A stretch of DNA of 64,000 nt from GCF_058153355.1 NZ_CM177019.1, one strand, 5' to 3'. Shown: positions 3,148 to 29,726, counted from the stretch's first letter. Notes: generated by a model not told the origin, from the letters alone. Translations and numbers: made by a program.

Positions 3148-5127
3148 ATGTTTAGGTTGAACCCCTTCGTACGGGTCGGGCTGTGTTTGTCCGCTATTTC
3201 TTGTGCATGGCCTGTGTTAGCGGTCGATGATGATGGCGAAACGATGGTTGTCACCGCATCTTCCGTTGAGCAAAACCTTAAAGATGCACCCGCCAGTATC
3301 AGCGTCATTACCCAGGAAGACCTGCAGCGAAAACCAGTACAGAATCTAAAGGATGTGCTCAAAGAAGTGCCTGGCGTACAACTGACGAACGAAGGGGATA
3401 ACCGTAAGGGCGTTAGTATTCGTGGTCTGGACAGCAGCTACACCCTGATTCTCGTCGACGGTAAACGCGTTAACTCCCGCAATGCCGTCTTCCGCCACAA
3501 TGATTTCGATCTGAACTGGATCCCGGTCGATTCCATCGAACGTATTGAAGTGGTCCGTGGCCCGATGTCGTCGCTGTACGGTTCCGATGCGCTCGGCGGT
3601 GTCGTGAATATCATCACCAAAAAAATCGGTCAGAAATGGTCGGGTACCGTTACTGTCGATACCACCATTCAGGAACATCGCGATCGCGGTGATACCTATA
3701 ACGGTCAGTTCTTTACCAGCGGGCCATTAATTGACGGTGTGCTGGGAATGAAAGCTTACGGCAGCCTGGCAAAACGTGAAAAGGATAACCCGCAAAACTC
3801 AACTACCACCGATACCGGAGAAACGCCGCGTATTGAAGGATTCTCCAGCCGCGACGGCAATGTGGAATTTGCCTGGACGCCGAATCAAAATCACGATTTT
3901 ACTGCCGGATACGGTTTTGACCGTCAGGATCGTGATTCCGACTCGCTGGACAAAAACCGCCTGGAACGTCAGAACTACTCCGTCAGCCATAATGGGCGTT
4001 GGGATTACGGCACCAGCGAACTGAAATACTACGGTGAGAAAGTCGAAAACAAAAACCCTGGCAACAGCAGCCCGATTACTTCCGAAAGCAATACGGTCGA
4101 TGGTAAATACACGTTGCCACTGACGGCGATTAATCAGTTTGTTACGGTTGGCGGTGAATGGCGTCACGACAAACTTAGCGATGCAGTAAACCTGACCGGA
4201 GGAACAAGCTCCAAAACGTCTGCCAGCCAGTACGCGCTGTTTGTGGAAGATGAATGGCGGATCTTCGAGCCGCTGGCGCTGACGACCGGCGTGCGTATGG
4301 ACGATCACGAAACCTACGGTGAACACTGGAGTCCTCGTGCCTACCTGGTTTATAACGCCACCGACACCGTAACGGTGAAAGGGGGCTGGGCGACGGCATT
4401 TAAAGCGCCTTCTCTGTTGCAACTTAGCCCTGACTGGACGAGCAATTCCTGCCGTGGCGCATGCAAGATTGTGGGTAGCCCGGATCTGAAACCTGAAACC
4501 AGCGAAAGTTGGGAGCTGGGGCTTTACTACATGGGTGAAGAAGGCTGGCTGGAAGGGGTTGAATCCAGCGTGACCGTTTTCCGCAACGATGTAAAAGATC
4601 GTATCAGCATCAGCCGTACGTCTGACGTCAATGCTGCTCCGGGCTACCAAAACTTTGTCGGTTTTACAGCGGACGGTGTGCCAGTATTCAGCTACTACAA
4701 CGTTAACAAAGCACGTATTCAGGGCGTGGAAACCGAACTGAAAATTCCGTTCAACGATGAATGGAAACTGTCGATCAACTACACCTACAACGATGGTCGT
4801 GATGTCAGCAACGGCGAAAACAAACCGTTGTCCGATCTGCCGTTCCATACCGCTAACGGTACGCTGGACTGGAAACCGCTGGCGCTGGAAGACTGGTCAT
4901 TCTATGTTTCTGGTCACTATACCGGGCAGAAACGCGCCGACAGCGCGACGGCTAAAACTCCGGGCGGTTATACCATCTGGAATACCGGCGCGGCCTGGCA
5001 GGTGACCAAAGACGTCAAACTGCGTGCGGGTGTGCTGAACCTTGGCGACAAGGATCTCAGTCGTGACGACTACAGCTATAACGAAGACGGACGTCGTTAC
5101 TTTATGGCAGTGGATTATCGCTTCTGA
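3148..5127 (+). CDS. cirA: TonB-dependent outer membrane receptor CirA (colicin I receptor / catecholate siderophore receptor)
   Basis: 659-aa ORF with signal peptide, TonB box (ETMVVTAS), plug and beta-barrel, and C-terminal aromatic residue (…VDYRF). Confidence 0.95.
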
Positions 5128-5134
5128 TGCGAAG

Positions 5135-5161
5135 ATGCCCGGCGTCGATCCCGCCGGGCAT
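5135..5161. terminator. GC-rich hairpin between convergent cirA and the MFS transporter gene (possible bidirectional terminator)
   Basis: atgcccggcg ... cgccgggcat inverted repeat; no clear T-tract on either side. Confidence 0.3.
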
Positions 5162-5185
5162 AATCCCAGAAATTCGCTTCTGGCT

Positions 5186-6508
5186 TTATAACCGATGAAA
5201 TTTTGCCAGTAAGGCCAGTGAAAATGTTGTCAGCAAAATGGTAATGACTGCGTAAATATACACTCCTGACCATTCCCAACTGTTTTTCACCATAATAACT
5301 GGAAGCCCTGCCATTGCCGCGCCTAAATAACTAAACAAGCCCCTGAATCCAGTAATGGAACCTGCCGCATCTTTATGCGTAACATCAAGACACCCGACAG
5401 CGAATAACATATGCGGTCCATACAATGCAAACCCCATGATTGTAAACAGAATAGCCGTTAATGTGTAGGAGACGTCCTGCACCAGCGGTACGAGAACGAT
5501 GCAAATACATAAAGCGATGGCAAAGATTAATCCGGTCATCCAGCGGTTACTTTTAAACATGAAATCGGACAAGTACCCCGCCAGTAATCCCCCAGCAAGT
5601 CCACCTGCTTCAAACCAGGATATAATGGAGTTCGCTTTAATCAGGCTCCAGTTATGAACCTGAGAATAATAAATTTGTGGCCAGTCATTGAGGATGGTGC
5701 GTGCAATATAGACCGACATATCCCCGAGGATAATGAGCCAAACTAATGGGTTGGTAAGAATATATTTAACGAATATTTGCCAAAAACTGAGATCAACCGG
5801 ACTTGCTTTAACTTGTGCAAGTTCTGTCGGGTCGTTGCGCCACTTACCGACGTTAGGCAAACCGAGCGTGCCGGGACGATCTTTTATCGTAAACAAGGCA
5901 ACAATCCCCATAATCAGTGAGATTACACCCGGAACATAAAAGCCCATCTTCCAGCTGCCACTAAAAGCAATAGCAAAGCTTGTCAGGAGAGGCGCAAGAC
6001 TACCGCCAATATTATGCGCAGCTTCAACAACTGCCCACCAGCGTCCGCGTTCATTTTTCGAGAACCACGAGGCCATAATTTTTGCCATTGGCGGAAAACT
6101 GGTACCCTGGAGAATAGCATTAAGGCTATACAGGATATAGAACGCAGCAACGCTGTCTGAAAAACCGAAAAGAATGTTAACAATACCGACGCCAATAAGT
6201 ACGGGGCCAGTCATCGCTCGTGGGTTAATTTTATCGACTAACATGCCACCTACAAACTTCATGGAGCCATAAAGAATGTAAAAGACCGACGACATGATAG
6301 CGAAATCTTGTGCGGTTAATGACGTATCCGTTAACATCGCTGGCATGGCCGCAGAGAAATTCTTGCGGGTTAAGTAAAATACGGCATAAGAGATAAATAC
6401 AGAGGTGATGATTTCAATGCGAAATTTTTTATAAGTATGATCAACTTCTTCTTTTGGTTTGACCACAGGTTGGTCGGCCTGGCTGAAAATAAATTTTTTC
6501 AAACTCAT
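5186..6508 (-). CDS. MFS transporter, organophosphate:Pi antiporter (GlpT/UhpT/PgtP-like) family
   Basis: 440-aa ORF with about 12 TM segments; N-terminal region YAVFYLTRKNFSAAMP matches the GlpT/UhpT-family motif; in an AT-richer accessory block. Confidence 0.85.
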   Translation of the reverse strand: MSLKKFIFSQADQPVVKPKEEVDHTYKKFRIEIITSVFISYAVFYLTRKNFSAAMPAMLTDTSLTAQDFAIMSSVFYILYGSMKFVGGMLVDKINPRAMTGPVLIGVGIVNILFGFSDSVAAFYILYSLNAILQGTSFPPMAKIMASWFSKNERGRWWAVVEAAHNIGGSLAPLLTSFAIAFSGSWKMGFYVPGVISLIMGIVALFTIKDRPGTLGLPNVGKWRNDPTELAQVKASPVDLSFWQIFVKYILTNPLVWLIILGDMSVYIARTILNDWPQIYYSQVHNWSLIKANSIISWFEAGGLAGGLLAGYLSDFMFKSNRWMTGLIFAIALCICIVLVPLVQDVSYTLTAILFTIMGFALYGPHMLFAVGCLDVTHKDAAGSITGFRGLFSYLGAAMAGLPVIMVKNSWEWSGVYIYAVITILLTTFSLALLAKFHRL

Positions 6509-6540
6509 TGTGAGTTTCCTTTTCTGTGAACCTTATGGCG

Positions 6541-7428
6541 CTATAATTTTTCTTCTATAAAAAAGAGAAGCGACTCGAAACCATTAAAATTAATCTGGTC
6601 AGCAATTTTTTCCCGGGTTTTAGGTTTTGCTTTCCATGCCACGCCATTTCCGGCATGCAAAAGCATAGGAATATCATTGGCACCATCTCCACAGGCAATG
6701 ATGTTTTCACGGCAGATAGCTAACTCTGTCGCTAAATTTATCAGGGTTTGCTTTTTCTTTTCTGCATTCATAATAGGTAAGGTAATTGTATCAGTTAACA
6801 GATCTTCCTTAATGCGCACAGAGTTAGAAAATGCAAAATCAAGTTGATATTTTTCCTTCAATCGCTCAGTAAAAATATCCAAACCTCCAGATATAATTGC
6901 CGTCTTGAATCCTTTTTCTTTTAGTATGGGAAGAATAGTTTCAAGACCTGGTGAAAGAGTCATCTGTTCACAAACTTGATGCAATATATCTTTATGCGTT
7001 CCTTTAAGCATGGCAATTCGCCGGGTAAAACTGGTATCAAAATCGATTTTCCCTTCCATCGCTTCACGGGTCAGTGCGGTGATTTTTTCAGAGATGCCGA
7101 GTCTACGGGCTATTTCATCGACACCTTCTTCTTCAACAAAGGTGGAATCCATATCAAAGGCAATAATTCCCTGATCCGGTAAGACCCTGGGTTTACGGAA
7201 AAAATCGAATTGATGATTATCAGCACGGTGACGTAAACCAGCATAAAAAGCAGGGTTGGTAACATCATCTGGTAATACTAGCTTTAGATACTCTTTATTT
7301 ATTTTCCCACTGTAATTCGTTGTTAGCGAAAACACCGAGGGGGAAATCTTTAAATGTTGCAGATAATCTTCCAGACATTTTTGGGTGATGTCGATGCCTG
7401 TTGGCGACAAGAAATAAATAATCGTCAT
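6541..7428 (-). CDS. HAD-superfamily phosphoserine phosphatase (SerB paralogue)
   Basis: 295-aa ORF with HAD motif I (IIAFDMDSTF), EGKIDFDTSF, AIISGG and GDGANDIPML; aligns by eye to E. coli SerB along its length. Confidence 0.85.
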   Translation of the reverse strand: MTIIYFLSPTGIDITQKCLEDYLQHLKISPSVFSLTTNYSGKINKEYLKLVLPDDVTNPAFYAGLRHRADNHQFDFFRKPRVLPDQGIIAFDMDSTFVEEEGVDEIARRLGISEKITALTREAMEGKIDFDTSFTRRIAMLKGTHKDILHQVCEQMTLSPGLETILPILKEKGFKTAIISGGLDIFTERLKEKYQLDFAFSNSVRIKEDLLTDTITLPIMNAEKKKQTLINLATELAICRENIIACGDGANDIPMLLHAGNGVAWKAKPKTREKIADQINFNGFESLLFFIEEKL

Positions 7429-7520
7429 TTACCGCTCCTTTTTATCTGCAATGATTATAATAAGATTTCGTAGAAGCTGATGTATCTGACAATCACAGTT
7501 GTGAATGTTAAATAAAAGAT

Positions 7521-7585
7521 AAAAAAGTACTTTTTTTGATACTTTGAAATAATAAGATACTAAAAGTACCATTTTTGATATCTTT
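7521..7585. promoter_or_regulatory. Divergent promoter region of the island with a direct repeat (AAAAGTAC-N6/7-TTGATA)
   Basis: aaaagtactttttttgatac (7523-7542) and aaaagtaccatttttgatatc (7562-7582), two near-identical copies about 40 bp apart in an AT-rich intergenic region between divergent operons. Confidence 0.3.
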
Positions 7586-7617
7586 ACCAGGATATAACGA
7601 ATAACTATTTTTCAACG

Positions 7618-8991
7618 TTGAAGGAATCATTTACAAATATGGAAAGCTGCGTAGATATATTCAAGATAGTTATTGGTCCATCCAGTTCCCGCACAGTCGG
7701 GCCAATGCGTGCGGCTTATAATTTTGTGTCACAATTGAAACAGCGAGAAATGTTACCTTTGTTGCGGAAAATTGATGTCGAACTTTATGGTGCGCTGTCA
7801 TTAAGCCGCAAGTGCCATAATGTTGATGTGGCGATTTATCTCGGTTTGCAAGGACACTTACCTGACAGCGTTGACATTCGCATGGAAATGTCCGCCATCA
7901 GGCGTGCAGAAACTGAGGCGACGCTGGAAGTTATGCCTGGTGTCAACGTCAGTGTATCCATTCTTTCTAATCTACAAGCGCATCCGGGGCACCCTTATGC
8001 GATGACATTTCGTGCCAGAGATGACTGGTTTACACTTTATGAAGAAACCTGGTTTTCTATCGGCGACGGTCAAGTGCTAAAAGCAGGAGAGGCGATTATT
8101 CCTCCATCAGTCACTCCACATCCTTTTGAATTCCAGAACGCAAACGAATTATTAAAACTTTGTCAGCAAAACGGATTATCTGTCGCGGCATTAATGATGA
8201 AAAACGAACTGCACTGCCAGACAGCAGCTTTTTTGCATGACGATCTTCATAAAAAATGGGAAGTAATGAAGGATGCGGTTTATCGCGGGATGCATACAGA
8301 AGGATTACTTCCAGGTCCGTTTCAGGTTAACCGTCGTGCCTGTGCTTTATATAAATCGTTGCAGTCAAAGGGGTTTTCCAATGACTTCCTGACTGCGCTC
8401 AATTGGGTCAATACTTTTGCCATTGCGGTGAGCGAAGAAAATGCTGCGGGTGGACGTGTCGTGACAGCACCCACCAACGGCGCGAGCGGTATTATCCCGG
8501 CTGTACTGTGCTGGTATGATAAATTCATTCACGAGCTTGATACATACTCCGTTACCCGCTTTTTACTGACCGCTGGTGCCATCGCCATTCTGTTCAAAAA
8601 AAATGCCTCTATTCTGGGTTCTGAAGTTGGATGTCAGGGGGAAATAGGTGTTGCCAGTTCAATGGCGGCAGCAGGATTAGCAGAACTTATGGGCGGGTCA
8701 GTGGCTCAGGTACTTAGCGCGGCAGAAATTGCGATGGAGCATCATTTAGGTTTGACCTGTGATCCAGTTGGCGGGCAGGTACAAATTCCTTGTATTGAAC
8801 GAAATGCTATTTCAGCTGTGAAAGCTATCAACGCAACGACGATGGCGTTGAGTCGCATAAGCGAGCCGTGCATTACGCTGGATGAGATAATTTCCGCGAT
8901 GTATGAAACCGGAAAGGATATGAGCGCTAAATACCGTGAAACTTATCATGGCTGTCTGAGCAAATTGCAGCCAAGAAAAAAGGATGCGTAA
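7618..8991 (+). CDS. L-serine dehydratase (L-serine ammonia-lyase, Fe-S type, single-chain SdaA-like)
   Basis: 457-aa ORF; N-terminal [20 protein letters not shown] matches the SdaA/SdaB/TdcG signature; true start may be the Met at 7639. Confidence 0.9.
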
Positions 8992-9382
8992 GATGAAATA
9001 TAATACGATGAATAACAACGAAATTATTTTATCACTGTGCGCTCGCATTAAAGAAACGCGTATCTCATTATCATTGACCCAACAGCAGTTAGCCGAGCGT
9101 GCATTGGTGGGCATAGCAACGGTCAAGCGGATTGAAAAGGGGGGAAGTTTAAATCTTGATACTCTCATTTCTCTTCTGCGCGCGCTGAATAAATTGCAAA
9201 ATCTCGATGCCATATTGTTCGAAGCAGAAATGCGTAATTTCAACGAAAATAGTTCCAGCGGCGAAGGGGCAGGGCGACTACAGGTACGCCAGCAACTGAC
9301 AGATTTAAACCAGAAGTCTCCAGCCCCGCACGCAGATGACCATAATTTTAGTACGGCGCTGGAAAATACCCTCTGCTGGTGA
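8984..9382 (+). CDS. XRE-family helix-turn-helix transcriptional regulator
   Basis: 132-aa ORF with HTH region LSLTQQQLAERALVGIATVKRIEKG; overlaps the 3' end of the serine dehydratase gene, suggesting co-transcription. Confidence 0.7.
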   Translation: MRKMKYNTMNNNEIILSLCARIKETRISLSLTQQQLAERALVGIATVKRIEKGGSLNLDTLISLLRALNKLQNLDAILFEAEMRNFNENSSSGEGAGRLQVRQQLTDLNQKSPAPHADDHNFSTALENTLCW

Positions 9383-10252
<870 letters not shown>

Positions 10253-23501: not shown

Positions 23502-23604
23502 TTAATTCGTAAAACGTGCTACCGATCACATTAAGAATTCTCAGCATAGTTGAATTACAGGGAAGTAACATCGGGCGAGTGCCCAGTTCAGCACACTAAT
23601 TCTG

Positions 23605-24504
23605 CTATAAAAAGTGCAGAAACTGACTTAAAGCATAAGAAGGCGTTTCGTTATTACGCCAAAACACACCGACGCTGCCTTTCTGTTCAATCTTTGGCAG
23701 GTTGAGGATCACCAGTTGCCCCTGGCTGGCATAACGTTGCGCCAGGCGTAATGACAAAATAGAGATCATATTGCTGCTTTGTAACAGGTTGGTACTGACG
23801 TTCATCGACGCCGACTCAATCGTGTTTTCTGGCAGCATCACGCCGTGGTCTACCAGCGCATTATCAATGCTGATGCGGATGGGGGTACCTGTCGGCCAGA
23901 CTATCCACCGCCAGTTAGCAAGATCATTCCAGCTGAGGGTGGCGTATTTCGCCAGTGGATGCTCAGGACGGGCGACAAAGCATACCGGCTCGGTGTAGAG
24001 CACGCGATAATTCAGCGGCAGCTGCAACGCGCGACCGCCAATTCGCCCAACCACCACATCGATAGAACCTGCCAACAGATCTTGCAGCAATGGGGTCATC
24101 ACCTTCTCTTCGATATTCAGGTGTAGAGTTGGCATCTCCTTGAGCAAATGCAAAATCGCCTGGGATACGCAGTCAGTGGCGACGGGAGAACAGCCAATTT
24201 TCAGACTGCCGACCAGTCCACCTTGTTTAAAACGGGCCAGTTCATGTTGCGAGCGCTCCATGTCATTGATTAACCGCTGGGCATGTTGCAATAACAATCT
24301 ACCGCCTTCGGTAGGGCGTAACCCTTTGCTGTGCCGCTCAAAGAGTGTGAGGCCGATCTCATCTTCGAGTTGTGACAACCATTTCGACAGCGCAGGCTGG
24401 GTGATATTCATCATCCGCGCGACATGGGTCAGATTGCCCTGTTCACCCAGCGCCACCAGCATTTGCAGGTGATGAAGCTTTAGTTTCTGCGCCCAGTTTG
24501 CCAT
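23605..24504 (-). CDS. mhbR: LysR-family regulator of the 3-hydroxybenzoate/gentisate cluster (MhbR-like)
   Basis: HTH MANWAQKLKLHHLQMLVALGEQGNLTHVARMMNITQPALSKWL; divergent from the catabolic operon; start chosen at the Met preceded by GGAGG. Confidence 0.8.
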   Translation of the reverse strand: MANWAQKLKLHHLQMLVALGEQGNLTHVARMMNITQPALSKWLSQLEDEIGLTLFERHSKGLRPTEGGRLLLQHAQRLINDMERSQHELARFKQGGLVGSLKIGCSPVATDCVSQAILHLLKEMPTLHLNIEEKVMTPLLQDLLAGSIDVVVGRIGGRALQLPLNYRVLYTEPVCFVARPEHPLAKYATLSWNDLANWRWIVWPTGTPIRISIDNALVDHGVMLPENTIESASMNVSTNLLQSSNMISILSLRLAQRYASQGQLVILNLPKIEQKGSVGVFWRNNETPSYALSQFLHFL

Positions 24505-24509
24505 TTGCC

Positions 24510-24525
24510 ATAACCTCCAGGTTAT
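24510..24525. promoter_or_regulatory. Palindromic LysR-type box (ATAACC-N4-GGTTAT) at the mhbR/mhbT divergent promoter
   Basis: ataacctccaggttat, a perfect inverted repeat immediately upstream of the mhbR start. Confidence 0.4.
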
Positions 24526-24630
24526 CTCTCTGCCCGAAATGCCATTGTACATTTCATCTCTTTAATCACAATATCGCAACATACATAAAACAAAAGAAAC
24601 ATCTACCTTACCTGCACTGAGGCATTTACT

Positions 24631-25989
24631 ATGACTCAACGACGTGATTTACAAGCACTGATCGATGCTGCTCCGGTCGGCAAGATGCAGTGGCGCGTTA
24701 TCATCTGCTGTTTTCTGGTGGTAATGCTCGATGGTTTTGACACCGCGGCTATCGGATTTATCGCCCCTGATATTCGCACTCACTGGCAACTCACCGCAGG
24801 CGATCTCGCCCCGCTTTTTGGCGCGGGTCTGCTGGGATTAACCGCAGGCGCACTGCTTTGTGGCCCGTTGTCTGACCGCTTTGGCCGCAAGCGGGTGATT
24901 GAGCTGTGCGTCTTTTTATTTGGCGCGTTAAGTCTCGCCTCTGCGTTTTCACCAGATCTGCAAACGCTGGTATTACTGCGTTTTCTCACAGGGCTTGGGC
25001 TTGGCGGGGCGATGCCGAACACCATCACCATGACCTCGGAGTATCTGCCTGCCCGCCGCCGAGGCGCGCTGGTGACGCTGATGTTTTGCGGCTTTACGCT
25101 GGGTTCGGCGTTTGGCGGGATTGTCAGCGCACAGCTGGTGCCGGTGATTGGCTGGCACGGGATCCTGGTGTTGGGTGGCGTATTACCGCTGATGCTGTTT
25201 GTCGCACTGCTTGTGATTCTTCCGGAATCGCCACGCTGGCAGGTGCGCCGCCAGTTACCACAGGCGGTGATTGCAAAAACTGTCAGCGCCATTACCCGCG
25301 AGCGTTATGTCGATACCCACTTTTATCTCAATGAATCAGCCTCCGTTACAAAAGGCAGCATTCGTCAACTGTTTATGGGACGTCAGTTACCCATTACGTT
25401 GATGTTGTGGGTAGTGTTCTTTATGAGCCTGCTGATTATTTACCTGCTCTCAAGCTGGATGCCAACGCTGTTGAACCATCGCGGCATAGACCTGCAACAC
25501 GCGTCCAGGGTCACCGCCGCGTTCCAGATTGGCGGTACGTTGGGCGCGCTGGCGCTGGGCGTGCTGATGGATAAGTTCAATCCTTTCCGCGTGCTGGCGC
25601 TGAGCTATGCCGTAGGCGCTGTATGCATCGTGATGATTGGCTTAAGCCAGGATGGATTATGGCTGATGGCGCTGGCGATTTTCGGCACCGGCATTGGCAT
25701 TAGCGGATCTCAGGTGGGGTTGAACGCGTTGACCGCAACGCTCTACCCAACGCAAAGCCGCGCCACGGGCGTGAGCTGGTCAAACGCCGTAGGCCGCTGC
25801 GGCGCGATTGTCGGCTCGCTTTCTGGCGGCCTGATGATGGCGATGAATTTCTCTTTCGACACCCTGTTTTTCATTATCGCTGTGCCCGCGGCGATCAGTG
25901 CGGTGATGTTAAGCCTGCTGATCGCCGTGGTTCGCCAGTCGACCTCTGTCCCTGACTCACTGCCTCGCGCAGGCGTTGTGAACGAATAA
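24631..25989 (+). CDS. mhbT: MFS aromatic acid (3-hydroxybenzoate/gentisate) transporter, MhbT-like
   Basis: 452-aa 12-TM MFS ORF with motif [12 protein letters not shown]; first gene of the catabolic operon. Confidence 0.8.
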
Positions 25990-26000
25990 GGAGCATCCTA

Positions 26001-27029
26001 ATGACTGATAACAATCAAAAAAGCCGCGAGCAATTTTATCAGCATATTTCCGGGCAAAACCTGACCCCGCTGTGGGAGTCACTGCACCACCTGGTGCCGA
26101 AAACGCCCAACGCCAACTGTGCGCCAGCGTACTGGAATTATCAGGAGATCCGCCCGCTGCTGCTGGAGAGCGGCAGCCTGATTGGTGCGAAAGAGGCCGT
26201 GCGCCGCGTGCTGGTGCTGGAAAACCCGGCGCTGCGCGGGCAGTCTTCCATTACCGCGACTTTATATGCCGGTTTGCAACTGATCATGCCGGGCGAAGTG
26301 GCACCGAGTCATCGTCATAATCAGTCGGCGCTGCGTTTTATTGTTGAAGGCAAAGGGGCATTTACCGCCGTTGATGGCGAACGCACGCCAATGAATGAGG
26401 GCGATTTTATCCTGACCCCACAATGGCGCTGGCACGATCATGGTAACCCTGGCGACGAACCGGTTATCTGGCTCGATGGGCTGGATCTGCCATTAGTGAA
26501 CACTCTGGGCTGCGGTTTTGCCGAAGATTACCCGGAAGAGCAACAACCGGTAACGCGTAAAGAGGGCGATTATCTGCCGCGTTACGCTGCCAATATGTTG
26601 CCGCTGCGCCATCAGACGGGGAACTCCTCACCGATCTTTAACTATCGTTATGACCGTAGCCGCGAAGTGCTGCACGATTTAACCCGCCTGGGCGATGCCG
26701 ACGAGTGGGATGGCTACAAAATGCGCTATGTCAACCCGGTCACCGGCGGCTATCCGATGCCGTCGATGGGCGCCTTCCTGCAACTGCTACCGAAAGGGTT
26801 CGCTTCCCGCGTGGCGCGTACCACTGACAGCACTATCTACCATGTAGTGGAAGGTAGCGGACAAGTCACCATCGGCAATGAAATCTTCACCTTTAGTGCA
26901 AAAGATATCTTTGTGGTGCCGACCTGGCACGGCGTGTCATTCCAGACTACGCAAGATACCGTTTTATTCAGTTTTTCGGACAGACCGGTACAAGAAGCCC
27001 TGGGGCTGTTCCGCGAAGCGCGTTATTAA
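26001..27029 (+). CDS. mhbD: Gentisate 1,2-dioxygenase (bicupin)
   Basis: 342-aa ORF with cupin His motif ([17 protein letters not shown]...) and two cupin halves. Confidence 0.9.
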
Positions 27030-27044
27030 TTTGGGAGAGAGAAA

Positions 27045-27746
27045 ATGACTCAATATGTATTCGAACCACAAGCGCCCGTTACCGTACCGGTTGTTGGCAG
27101 TGATGAACAATTCCCCGTGCGCCGCGTTTACTGCGTCGGGCGTAACTATGCCGCCCACGCCCGCGAAATGGGCTTTGATCCGGATCGTGAACCCCCCTTC
27201 TTCTTCTGCAAACCAGCAGATGCCGTTGTTCCGGTCGCCGCTGGCGAAACGCTGGCGCTGCCGTATCCGGCGCAGACCGATAACTATCATTACGAAATTG
27301 AACTGGTGGTGGCGATTGGTAAAAAGGGCAGCGATATCCCACTGGAAAAGGCCCATGAATATGTCTGGGGTTATGCCACAGGCCTTGATATGACGCGCCG
27401 GGACCGTCAAATGGAAATGCGTCAGATGGGCCGCCCGTGGGAAATCGGCAAAGCATTTGATCTCTCGGCCCCCATCGCACCGCTGCACAAAGCCAGCGAA
27501 ACCGGCGGTATTGATAACGCACCAATCTGGTTACAGGTAAACGGTGAAGATCACCAGCGCAGCGATATTCGCCATCTCATCTGGTCGGTGAATGAAACCA
27601 TCAGCTACCTGTCAGGCTTCTTTGAGCTGCAACCGGGCGATCTGATCTTCACTGGTACGCCAGAAGGGGTGGGCCCGGTAGTGAAAGGTGATGTGATCAC
27701 GGGCAACGTCGAGGGCTTAACCCCTATCGCGGTGAAGATTGTCTGA
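27045..27746 (+). CDS. mhbH: Fumarylpyruvate hydrolase (FAH family)
   Basis: 233-aa ORF with fumarylacetoacetate-hydrolase-family fold signature (…[15 protein letters not shown]…). Confidence 0.85.
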
Positions 27747-27751
27747 GGTGC

Positions 27752-28399
27752 ATGATGAAGCTGTACAGTTTTTTTAATAGTTCAGCATCGTACCGGGTAC
27801 GCATTGCGCTGGCGCTGAAAGGCATTAATTACCAGACCGAAGGGGTGAATATCCGTATTGGTCAGCAAAATGAACTGGCCTATCGGCGGATGAATCCTGT
27901 CGGGCTGGTGCCGACGCTGCTGACTGACGAGGGCGAGTCACTCGGTCAGTCGCTGGCGATTATTGACTGGCTGGATCGTCACTACCCGCAAGTTCCGCTG
28001 GTGCCGCAGGAAGAACCGGCCCGCAATAAGGTGCTGGAAATTGTCTATGCCATCGCCTGTGATATTCATCCATTGAATAACCTGCGCGTGCTGCGCTACC
28101 TGACCGAAGAGCTGAACGTCAGTGAAGAAGAGAAAAAACGCTGGTATGCGCACTGGATCCAGCAAGGTTTAAGCGCGGTGGAACAGCTACTGCGCCAGAG
28201 CCAGTCGGGGCAATTTTGTGTGGGTGAGACGCCGACGCTGGCAGACTGCTGCCTTGTTCCGCAGTGGGCGAACGCGCTACGTATGAACTGCGATCTGAGT
28301 GGATATCCGCGCTGCAAAGCGGTGTACGACGCCTGCACACAACTGCCAGCGTTCATTGCCGCAGCGCCAGAAAATCAACAAGATAAAATTTCAGCCTGA
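27752..28399 (+). CDS. mhbI: Maleylpyruvate isomerase (zeta-class glutathione S-transferase)
   Basis: 215-aa ORF with GST N-terminal thioredoxin-like start MKLYSFFNSSASYRVRIALALKG. Confidence 0.85.
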   Translation: MMKLYSFFNSSASYRVRIALALKGINYQTEGVNIRIGQQNELAYRRMNPVGLVPTLLTDEGESLGQSLAIIDWLDRHYPQVPLVPQEEPARNKVLEIVYAIACDIHPLNNLRVLRYLTEELNVSEEEKKRWYAHWIQQGLSAVEQLLRQSQSGQFCVGETPTLADCCLVPQWANALRMNCDLSGYPRCKAVYDACTQLPAFIAAAPENQQDKISA

Positions 28400-28413
28400 C
28401 CAGGAGAACCATA

Positions 28414-29607
28414 ATGACTAAAGTGACACGCGCAGTAATTGTGGGAGGCGGGATCGGCGGTGCGGCAACTGCGCTGTCACTGGCCCGCCAGGGGATCAAA
28501 GTGGTGCTGCTGGAAAAGGCGCATGAGATCGGTGAGATTGGCGCAGGTATCCAGTTGGGGCCAAATGCGTTTTCGGCGTTGGATAGTCTTGGTGTTGGCG
28601 AAATCGCCCGCCAACGTGCGGTATTCACCGATCACATCACCATGATGGACGCGGTGAACGCCGAAGAAGTGGTGCGTATTGAAACCGGGCAGGCCTTTCG
28701 TGACCATTTCGGCGGCCCTTACGCGGTGATCCTCCGGGTTGATATTCATGCCTCGGTGTGGGAAGCGGTACTGACGCATCCGGACGTGGAGTATCACACC
28801 TCTACGAATGTCGTGGATATTCGTGAGACGGAAGACGATGTCACCGTTTTCGACGATCGAGGTAATAGCTGGAGCGGCGATATTTTGATTGGCTGTGATG
28901 GCGTGAAGTCAGTGGTGCGCCAGAGCTTATTAGGCGATGCGCCGCGCGTCACCGGTCATGTGGTCTACCGTGCGGTTATCGATTGTGCGGATATGCCGGA
29001 AGATTTACGTATTAATGCGCCGGTATTGTGGGCGGGTCCGCACTGTCACCTGGTACATTATCCTTTGCGCGGCGGCAAGCAGTATAACCTGGTGGTGACA
29101 TTCCACAGCCGCCACCAGGAAGAGTGGGGCGTGAAGGATGGCAGTAAAGAGGAAGTGCTTTCCTATTTTGAAGGCATTCACCCGCGTCCTCGCCAGATGC
29201 TGGATAAACCGACGTCATGGCGACGCTGGTCAACGGCCGATCGTGAACCGGTAGGGAAATGGGGGACTAACCGCATTACGCTGGTGGGCGATGCGGCCCA
29301 TCCGGTGACGCAGTATATGGCACAAGGTGCCTGTATGGCGCTGGAAGATGCAGTAACGCTGGGTAAGGCGCTGGCGCAGTGTGAGGGTGATGCGGCGCAA
29401 GCTTTTGCGCTGTATGAGTCGGTACGTATTCCGCGTACCGCGCGCATCGTCTGGTCGACCCGTGAAATGGGGCGGGTTTATCACGCCGCAGGGGTAGAAC
29501 GTCAGGTACGTAACCTGCTGTGGAAAGGGAAATCGCAGGCAGAGTTTTATCGCGGCATGGAGTGGCTGTACGGCTGGAAAGAAGATAACTGTCTGCAACC
29601 ACGCTGA
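28414..29607 (+). CDS. mhbM: 3-hydroxybenzoate 6-hydroxylase (FAD-dependent monooxygenase)
   Basis: 397-aa ORF with FAD-binding GxGxxG (VIVGGGIGGAATAL) and the DG and GD motifs of flavin hydroxylases. Confidence 0.85.
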   Translation: MTKVTRAVIVGGGIGGAATALSLARQGIKVVLLEKAHEIGEIGAGIQLGPNAFSALDSLGVGEIARQRAVFTDHITMMDAVNAEEVVRIETGQAFRDHFGGPYAVILRVDIHASVWEAVLTHPDVEYHTSTNVVDIRETEDDVTVFDDRGNSWSGDILIGCDGVKSVVRQSLLGDAPRVTGHVVYRAVIDCADMPEDLRINAPVLWAGPHCHLVHYPLRGGKQYNLVVTFHSRHQEEWGVKDGSKEEVLSYFEGIHPRPRQMLDKPTSWRRWSTADREPVGKWGTNRITLVGDAAHPVTQYMAQGACMALEDAVTLGKALAQCEGDAAQAFALYESVRIPRTARIVWSTREMGRVYHAAGVERQVRNLLWKGKSQAEFYRGMEWLYGWKEDNCLQPR

Positions 29608-29638
29608 GTACTTCTTACCCAATCAGGTGCACGGACGG

Positions 29639-29676
29639 TCCCCTCGCCCCTTTGGGGAGAGGGTTAGGGTGAGGGG
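29639..29676. repeat. G/C-tract structured repeat at the junction between the mhb cluster and dusC
   Basis: tcccctcgcccctttggggagagggttagggtgagggg, with nested inverted repeats cccc-ttt-gggg and ccctc...gaggg. Confidence 0.4.
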
Positions 29677-29726
29677 AAAAATCTTGCCCGAATTAATCAG
29701 TAAGTCAGTTTGTCTGCAAACACCAG

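Follow-up and report, generated by a model that had tools for sequence, protein, structure and literature searches.

A four-gene block between cirA and yeiG in enteric bacteria and its possible role in the uptake and catabolism of O-phospho-L-serine

In the GlpT, UhpT and PgtP systems, an organophosphate is brought into the cell and inorganic phosphate is sent out; in the sdaCB and tdc operons, an importer is paired with a serine deaminase. Here we describe a block of four genes that is lodged between cirA and yeiG in a stretch of 64,000 nucleotides of Escherichia coli sequence (NZ_CM177019.1, assembly GCF_058153355.1; hereafter, the window, with positions counted from its first letter) and that resembles both arrangements, except that the importer would carry a phosphorylated amino acid. 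The block encodes a transporter of the organophosphate:phosphate antiporter (OPA) family, a SerB-type phosphatase of the HAD class, an L-serine dehydratase and a small XRE-family helix-turn-helix (HTH) regulator. We favor, with modest confidence, the interpretation of this block as a self-contained catabolic module under its own regulator, ancestral in enterics, with which the cell would use an external phospho-amino acid, most likely O-phospho-L-serine; within this explanation, the ancestry is considerably better secured than the function.

The block transporter has the fold and family of GlpT, UhpT, PgtP and UhpC, together with the two essential arginines, the lysine and the histidine of the phosphate site, at 26-39% sequence identity; it differs in that a glutamate, E162, replaces part of a Trp-Asn pair and in that its gene is linked to those of a phosphatase and a deaminase, whereas the Uhp and Pgt genes are linked to a two-component system and glpT to glp genes. 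Control by a small XRE protein likewise sets the block apart from the two-component systems of Uhp and Pgt. The phosphatase shares the HAD-IB core and the phosphoserine-binding residues with SerB and the enzyme of M. jannaschii (phosphoserine phosphatase, PSP) but departs from SerB in its unrelated N-terminal domain and its transporter partner, and the dehydratase is of the same single-chain type as SdaA, SdaB and TdcG, with the same three cluster cysteines, but has SSSRT in place of SSSHT and has lost the Cys-containing tail. The sole bacterial route of phosphoserine uptake found in the searched literature is PhnCDE of E. coli (PMC4394545), a Pho-regulon ABC transporter for phosphonates that serves promiscuous phosphorus scavenging and is unrelated to the block transporter in fold, regulation and proposed purpose.

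The closest described counterpart of the entire block is STM2195-STM2198 of Salmonella enterica (t0660-t0657 in Typhi), an orthologous block at the same locus with products that are 64-92% identical to those of the window. STM2196-2198 presumably correspond to the three genes other than the regulator gene. For STM2195-STM2198, we found generic annotations only and no functional study in the searched literature; STM2195, the regulator, has been listed as a putative DNA-binding protein without a K-12 ortholog (PMC3487940). No description of the four-gene unit came up in the searched full-text literature, a search that did not extend to subscription journals, so that an earlier description is possible.

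Products of the four genes

Four intact genes occupy positions 5186-9382 and form two divergent units flanked by cirA and yeiG. The first-pass annotation of this region, made from the sequence alone, had placed four genes here with the same identities and the same divergent arrangement, and this holds up: the open reading frames and the MFS and HAD motifs are present, and the profile and structure matches agree with the proposed families. Its gene ends stand as well, including the last stop codon at 9382; for the starts of the dehydratase and regulator genes, cross-species conservation and RefSeq both favor positions 7639 and 8993 over 7618 and 8984.

The transporter gene (5186-6508, minus strand) encodes a protein of 440 amino acids that contains the sequence FYLTRKNFS and matches Pfam MFS_1 at 1e-46. 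Profile and structure comparisons place this protein in the OPA family (TC 2.A.1.4): the match to the GlpT structure 1PW4 extends over residues 7-426 (E-value 5e-69), and the best NCBIfam matches are all OPA members, with the UhpC receptor subfamily at the top. The phosphate-site set R48, K84, H165 and R270, invariant in the alignment, is equivalent to R45, K80, H165 and R269 of GlpT, among which K80, H165 and R269 have described roles in the phosphate site (PMC2739438). Two further positions distinguish the family. First, V161-E162 takes the place of the W-N pair that is present in all other aligned OPA proteins and that, in GlpT (W161 and N162), is given among the cavity residues (PMC2739438 supplement). 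Second, T386 and R389 occupy the positions of D388 and K391 of UhpT, which leaves an unpaired cation. PgtP has V/R at these positions and thus likewise an unpaired cation in transmembrane helix 11, and UhpC and GlpT are uncharged there (the PgtP sequence used for this comparison scores 900 bits against NF047787). Unmasking of K391 in UhpT reportedly moves the preference of that transporter towards phosphoenolpyruvate (PEP), with its extra carboxylate, a result attributed to Hall, Fann and Maloney in 1999.

The transporter family is well separated from its relatives. Among 1.84 billion representatives of 50%-identity clusters, the sole full-length representative with more than 50% identity belongs to the family itself (Photobacterium lutimaris, 68%), and the next one is at 38%. 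Across the 122 nearest full-length representatives of such clusters, glutamate at position 162 occurs only in this family and arginine or lysine at position 389 in 3, so the combination of E162 and R389 is confined to this family. The added negative charge of E162 and positive charge of R389 would suit, respectively, the NH3+ and COO- groups of a phospho-amino acid, and we propose that the protein is a phospho-L-serine:phosphate antiporter. The transporter is also the most constrained of the four proteins, with a ratio of nonsynonymous to synonymous substitution rates (dN/dS) of 0.03-0.05.

The phosphatase gene (6541-7428, minus strand; 295 amino acids) lies 32 nt upstream of the transporter gene, and the two are probably co-transcribed. 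The protein passes TIGR00338, the SerB equivalog (207.6 against a cutoff of 144.15), but scores 201, under the cutoff of 413, with the full-length enterobacterial SerB model NF008350, which matches residues 80-288 alone; the N-terminal part of about 85 amino acids is unrelated to SerB and fast-evolving. Both catalytic motifs, D92-M-D94-S-T (DMDST) and GDGAND (247-252), are invariant in 15 enteric orthologs and in a 35%-identical copy from Photobacterium. The same is the case, in 16 sequences, for E101, M124, F130 and R137, which align with E20, M43, F49 and R56 of M. jannaschii PSP (1F5S), the residues that bind the amino group, side chain and carboxylate of phosphoserine in the PSP structures; D92 and D94 align with the catalytic aspartates of that enzyme. 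The structure 4EZE, of the Salmonella ortholog, is matched over the full length (E-value 7e-118); it is deposited as “HAD-like hydrolase” and is presumably of EFI origin. Identity to K-12 SerB is 41%, in the catalytic core only, and because the housekeeping serB gene is present in 5424 of the 5426 E. coli genomes, the phosphatase gene of the block is an additional SerB paralog. Its pairing with a transporter gene suggests that it serves catabolism and not biosynthesis.

The dehydratase gene (7639-8991, plus strand) encodes 450 amino acids starting with MESC. The protein is of the single-chain type, passes TIGR00720, the L-serine ammonia-lyase equivalog, with a score of 547 (cutoff 345), is 50% identical to K-12 SdaA and matches the Legionella structure 4RQO at an E-value of 8e-109. 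C332, C374 and C385, invariant in 15 orthologs, align with C343, C385 and C396 of the Legionella enzyme, the ligands of its Fe-S cluster. All 15 subfamily members have GPSSSRT where 105 of the 105 other, canonical matches have GPSSSHT, and all 15 lack the Cys-containing C-terminal tail that is present in the five canonical tails inspected and that, in the Legionella enzyme, presumably acts as an intrinsic plug of the active site. Identity is at least 67% within the subfamily and at most 54% to all other sequences, and by these marks the protein belongs to a distinct, sharply separated subfamily of Fe-S L-serine dehydratases.

Gene linkage and the divergent control region

Outside this locus, the same gene families come together repeatedly. 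In four contexts, and in both gene orders, the transporter gene has next to it a SerB-type gene whose product passes TIGR00338: phosphatase then transporter at the enteric locus, transporter then phosphatase in P. lutimaris (L006) and in a metagenomic contig (L052), and a fourth arrangement in the contigs L055/L056. In the latter, which are not syntenic with the block, all four families are present again in the order phosphatase, transporter, HTH regulator and, convergently, dehydratase; the proteins are 71, 49, 55 and 50% identical to the window's four, and the dehydratase again has SxSRT. This second copy (L055 3473-7434 and L056), whose assembly carries the label Salmonella enterica, has a phage lysis gene, an insertion sequence (IS)-like remnant and an autotransporter gene as neighbors, and the set may represent a mobile version of the module. 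The P. lutimaris pair (L006 2464-9289) directly follows genes for a xanthine/uracil-family permease and an adenine deaminase, and K-12 uhpT has neighbors of the same type (adeQ-adeD-uhpT, L049), which hints at a shared ancestral locus of the P. lutimaris pair and the uhp genes. More distant transporter homologs (64% and 53% identity) adjoin, in divergent orientation, SerA-like and D-2-hydroxyacid dehydrogenase genes; such neighbors would fit substrates of the phosphorylated serine pathway, for example, phosphoserine degraded through reversed SerC and SerA steps. The gene neighbors of homologs from Edwardsiella and Helicobacter (42-45%) were uninformative.

The regulator gene (8993-9382, plus strand) encodes 129 amino acids starting with MKYNTMNN; it is conserved and under purifying selection. 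The protein gives weak XRE-type matches in NCBIfam, and Pfam HTH_3 is recorded for its orthologs. The control region between the two units (7429-7638) comprises 210 bp with a GC content of 0.26 and is poorly conserved between genera, three elements excepted. On the minus strand, near the ribosome-binding site AGGAG of the phosphatase gene (7435-7439), the element ATTATAAT (7454-7461) is conserved as ATT[AG]TAAT in 14 of the 15 aligned loci, the remaining one, from Citrobacter, having ATTGTAGT; this is the likely -10 element of a predicted promoter of the phosphatase-transporter unit. A conserved palindrome, ATCACAGTTGTGAAT (also written ATCACAGnTGTGAAT), is located at 7492-7506. This TCACA-N2-TGTGA sequence was considered as a CRP site and rejected because its spacing is wrong.

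The remaining conserved feature consists of two operator-like dyads on the plus strand, AAAGTACTTTTTTTGATAC (7524-7542) and AAAGTACCATTTTTGATAT (7563-7581), with half-sites GTAY(C)/GATAY. They are 19-nt direct repeats of each other at a distance of 39 bp, each an imperfect dyad (GTAYC-N6-GATAY). The motif has 2 matches in the 64 kb of the window against 0.01 expected, and in the orthologous loci it is found in the equivalent intergenic region only. A putative sigma-70-like promoter of the dehydratase-regulator unit, TTGAAA-17-TACCAT (7544-7572, plus strand), is interleaved with the dyads such that its -35 box abuts dyad 1 and its -10 box overlaps dyad 2. From this layout, we propose that the XRE protein is an autoregulated repressor of both units. 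In a transposon-sequencing comparison, insertions in STM2195 were tolerated less in Typhimurium than in Typhi (PMC3487940); this is compatible with harmful derepression, as weak evidence. A match to STM14_2709 in a transposon-sequencing study of iron restriction was weak and the identity of the gene unconfirmed, so it was given no weight. A search of the control region for riboswitches or leader RNAs produced no Rfam match at E-values up to 1.

Proposed function and competing explanations

Taken together, the products could form the following pathway. The OPA transporter would swap external phosphoserine for internal phosphate; the SerB-type phosphatase would split phosphoserine into L-serine and phosphate and so restore the counter-substrate of the antiporter; and the Fe-S dehydratase would turn serine into pyruvate and ammonium, averting a toxic build-up of serine. 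The XRE protein, bound at the two dyads over the dehydratase promoter, would keep the module off until it is induced. We infer the transported substrate, the direction of flux, the role of the repressor and the inducer from sequence comparisons; it is the substrate-site residues, the recurring gene linkage and the shared operators that strengthen the phosphoserine interpretation. A more specific proposal, which we regard as slightly more apt to fail than to hold, is that the transporter represents a new OPA substrate class, a phosphoserine importer by virtue of E162 and R389, that works in a phosphate-recycling loop with the SerB paralog and a dehydratase subtype devoid of the autoinhibitory C-terminal cysteine and would feed Salmonella, Citrobacter and a few E. 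coli on phosphoserine from host or dietary phosphoproteins and from phospholipid breakdown.

Several observations weigh against phosphoserine as the substrate, and most of them lend themselves to a different explanation, namely, that the block is a module of the same type for another anionic organophosphate, such as PEP, 2- or 3-phosphoglycerate, phosphothreonine, phosphohydroxypyruvate or a similar phospho-carboxylate, with the phosphatase and the dehydratase acting on the imported compound or its product. The transporter falls below the NCBIfam cutoffs for UhpC (426 against 564), GlpT (279 against 633), PgtP (217 against 750) and UhpT (198 against 497), and because it scores under all curated OPA equivalogs, these models leave its substrate open. 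The T386/R389 pattern is that of PgtP, where an unpaired cation goes with the transport of PEP and phosphoglycerates. The SerA-like and D-2-hydroxyacid dehydrogenase genes next to the distant homologs keep phospho-hydroxy-acid substrates in play, and the dehydratase subfamily is atypical, so that, given its non-canonical SSSRT motif and tail, its substrate or kinetics may differ from those of the canonical enzymes. We nevertheless consider a substrate of this kind unlikely: the phosphatase retains the amino-binding glutamate and the carboxylate-binding arginine of phosphoserine phosphatases, E162 in the transporter cavity points to a substrate with a cationic group, such as neither phosphoglycerates nor PEP have, and the dehydratase passes the L-serine ammonia-lyase equivalog with the three cluster cysteines kept. 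Three other points count against the catabolic module as a whole. Gallibacterium has the transporter alone (77-82% identical); no recognizable sensor domain was found in the regulator; and the dehydratase promoter is supported by a match to the consensus only, matches of this kind being fewer overall than the shuffle expectation, so that the credibility of this promoter comes from its position relative to the dyads.

A second possibility, which we consider quite improbable, does without uptake: the block would control the serine pool by means of an extra SerB and an extra SdaA governed by a regulator of their own, and the MFS protein would be an exporter or a UhpC-like sensor, or else the juxtaposition of these paralogs would be fortuitous. 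The top NCBIfam match of the MFS protein, the UhpC receptor subfamily, is in line with a sensor, and the poor tolerance of STM2195 insertions (PMC3487940) suggests that misexpression may be harmful. The role of a UhpC-like sensor was rejected because Uhp partners (UhpA/UhpB-type) are absent from the locus; moreover, the residues critical for transport are all kept in a protein that is more constrained than the other three, and the linkage of the same families in several independent arrangements argues against chance. The import and catabolism of phosphoserine stays the interpretation that we prefer for the four genes.

Distribution, boundaries and history of the block

The block as a whole spans 4255 bp (5128-9382) between cirA (3148-5127, plus strand) on the left and yeiG (9383-10219, minus strand) on the right; in K-12-type strains, the two genes are only 31 bp apart. 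Its GC content is 0.431, compared to 0.505 in the flanks and 0.512 in the entire window. The first-pass annotation had noted the adjacency of cirA and yeiG in K-12, the AT-rich composition and the lack of any integrase, transposase or tRNA gene, and we agree with it on each point: no tRNA, no Rfam family and no integrase or transposase open reading frame was found in the block. What we do not retain is its conclusion that the block is an accessory island acquired by E. coli.

Of 5426 complete E. coli genomes, 85 (about 1.6%) carry the block, always on the chromosome, in a single copy and at the same site. Apparent plasmid matches were rejected, being mis-binned pieces of Salmonella chromosomes that also hold yeiG/fghA. 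Three haplotypes occur among the E. coli copies, with 99.7%, 97.0% and 96.2% identity to the window; the flanks of haplotypes B and C are K-12-like (98-99% identical). The four genes are found in identical order at the yeiG-cirA or yeiG-lysP site in Salmonella enterica subspecies enterica, arizonae and diarizonae, in eight Citrobacter species, in Escherichia whittamii, in a Scandinavium-like genome and in another enteric genome whose left flank differs. The identity of the proteins to those of the window declines in the order of the species. In E. whittamii, it is 95% for the transporter, 82% for the phosphatase, 87% for the dehydratase and 95% for the regulator; the respective values are 92, 64, 72 and 75% in Salmonella and 88-92, 58-64, 74-77 and 69-74% in Citrobacter. 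Synonymous divergence between the window and E. whittamii is 0.29-0.63 in the block and 0.35-0.64 in the flanking genes, and between the E. coli haplotypes, the block and its flanks are about equally diverged. All four genes are under purifying selection (dN/dS 0.03-0.3).

Because the synteny is shared and the divergence matches that of the species and the flanks, the block is best regarded as ancestral and not as a recent gain; and because only 85 of the 5426 E. coli genomes carry it, the K-12 arrangement is most likely the product of a deletion. Under this scenario, the block would have been located beside yeiG already in the common ancestor of Escherichia, Salmonella and Citrobacter, and a clean deletion would have removed it from about 98% of E. 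coli, K-12 included. The first-pass annotation had named, as an outcome that would overturn it, an ancestral block lost in K-12 and with unrelated functions; the first half of this is what we find most likely, and the second is not what the four products suggest. The empty site of K-12 retains the left arm of the first hairpin behind cirA and then runs straight into the stop codon of yeiG, with no repeats, and flanking repeats were not found at the block junctions in the comparison with K-12, E. whittamii and Salmonella either. Of the usual signs of a genomic island, atypical GC content alone is present: there are no mobility genes, no tRNA and no repeat boundaries, and the syntenic site is occupied by the block in four other genera or species groups. 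One observation counts against the explanation as a whole, namely, that the Escherichia copies of the block are, unexpectedly, AT-richer than the Salmonella copies; the low GC content itself may be the trace of an old transfer to the common ancestor.

The notion of a horizontally acquired accessory island that entered some E. coli recently, for which one can cite the GC content of 0.43 against 0.51 in the flanks, the presence in only 1.6% of the complete E. coli genomes and the diverged second copy in phage- and IS-like surroundings elsewhere, is very doubtful and, as a recent gain, largely refuted by synteny and divergence, given the same site and gene order in Salmonella, Citrobacter, Scandinavium-like genomes and E. 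whittamii, similarity that tracks the species tree, three E. coli haplotypes that differ as much as their flanks, and the lack of a tRNA, an integrase, a flanking repeat or genuine plasmid carriage.

Several features of the locus and its surroundings can be added. Between the convergent stop codons of cirA and the transporter gene, two hairpins (5135-5183), ATGCCCGGCG-N7-CGCCGGGCAT at 5135-5161 and CCAGAA-N6-TTCTGG at 5166-5183, are probably terminators, although a consensus terminator scan did not call them. At the other end, the stop codons of the regulator gene and yeiG abut in E. coli with zero spacer (window 9380-9385), and in Salmonella the two genes overlap by 12 nt (L002 4103-4114); with convergent ends that abut or overlap, the transcripts must overlap. 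Owing to a small in-frame difference, the CirA protein of the window has 659 amino acids where those of K-12, other E. coli and Salmonella have 663-664. In genomes of the Citrobacter freundii complex (L012, L013, L015, L016, L017 and L025), the position of cirA is taken by another TonB-dependent receptor gene on the opposite strand, with 35-36% identity to CirA, and the four-gene block is unchanged; in Citrobacter koseri NCTC10786, the transporter gene (L023 6001-7321) is seemingly frameshifted and the other three genes are intact. The window itself is probably derived from a divergent lineage of E. coli: over the comparable 60 kb (window 1-60600), it is 92-97% identical to K-12, a divergence far above that usual between E. 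coli phylogroups. It also includes a second block that K-12 lacks, a six-gene cluster for the degradation of gentisate and 3-hydroxybenzoate (23540-29722) that is absent from the K-12 arrangement and consists of genes for a LysR regulator, a PcaK-like transporter, gentisate 1,2-dioxygenase, a FAH-family hydrolase, a maleylacetoacetate/maleylpyruvate isomerase and 3-hydroxybenzoate 6-monooxygenase.

If the proposed function is correct, phospho-amino acids would become the fourth substrate class of a textbook transporter family, and a function could be assigned to a conserved uncharacterized locus of Salmonella and Citrobacter, for one protein of which a crystal structure is already available. 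Salmonella, Citrobacter and about 1.6% of E. coli would, in that case, be set apart from the rest by a nutrient niche, with casein, phosvitin, phosphatidylserine turnover and the host cytosol as candidate sources of phosphoserine. A dedicated importer would, in addition, be useful for genetic-code expansion, which now depends on poor, Pho-dependent uptake (PMC4394545). Whatever its function, the locus can be considered a clean case of a low-GC “island” that is really ancestral and survives as a presence/absence polymorphism.

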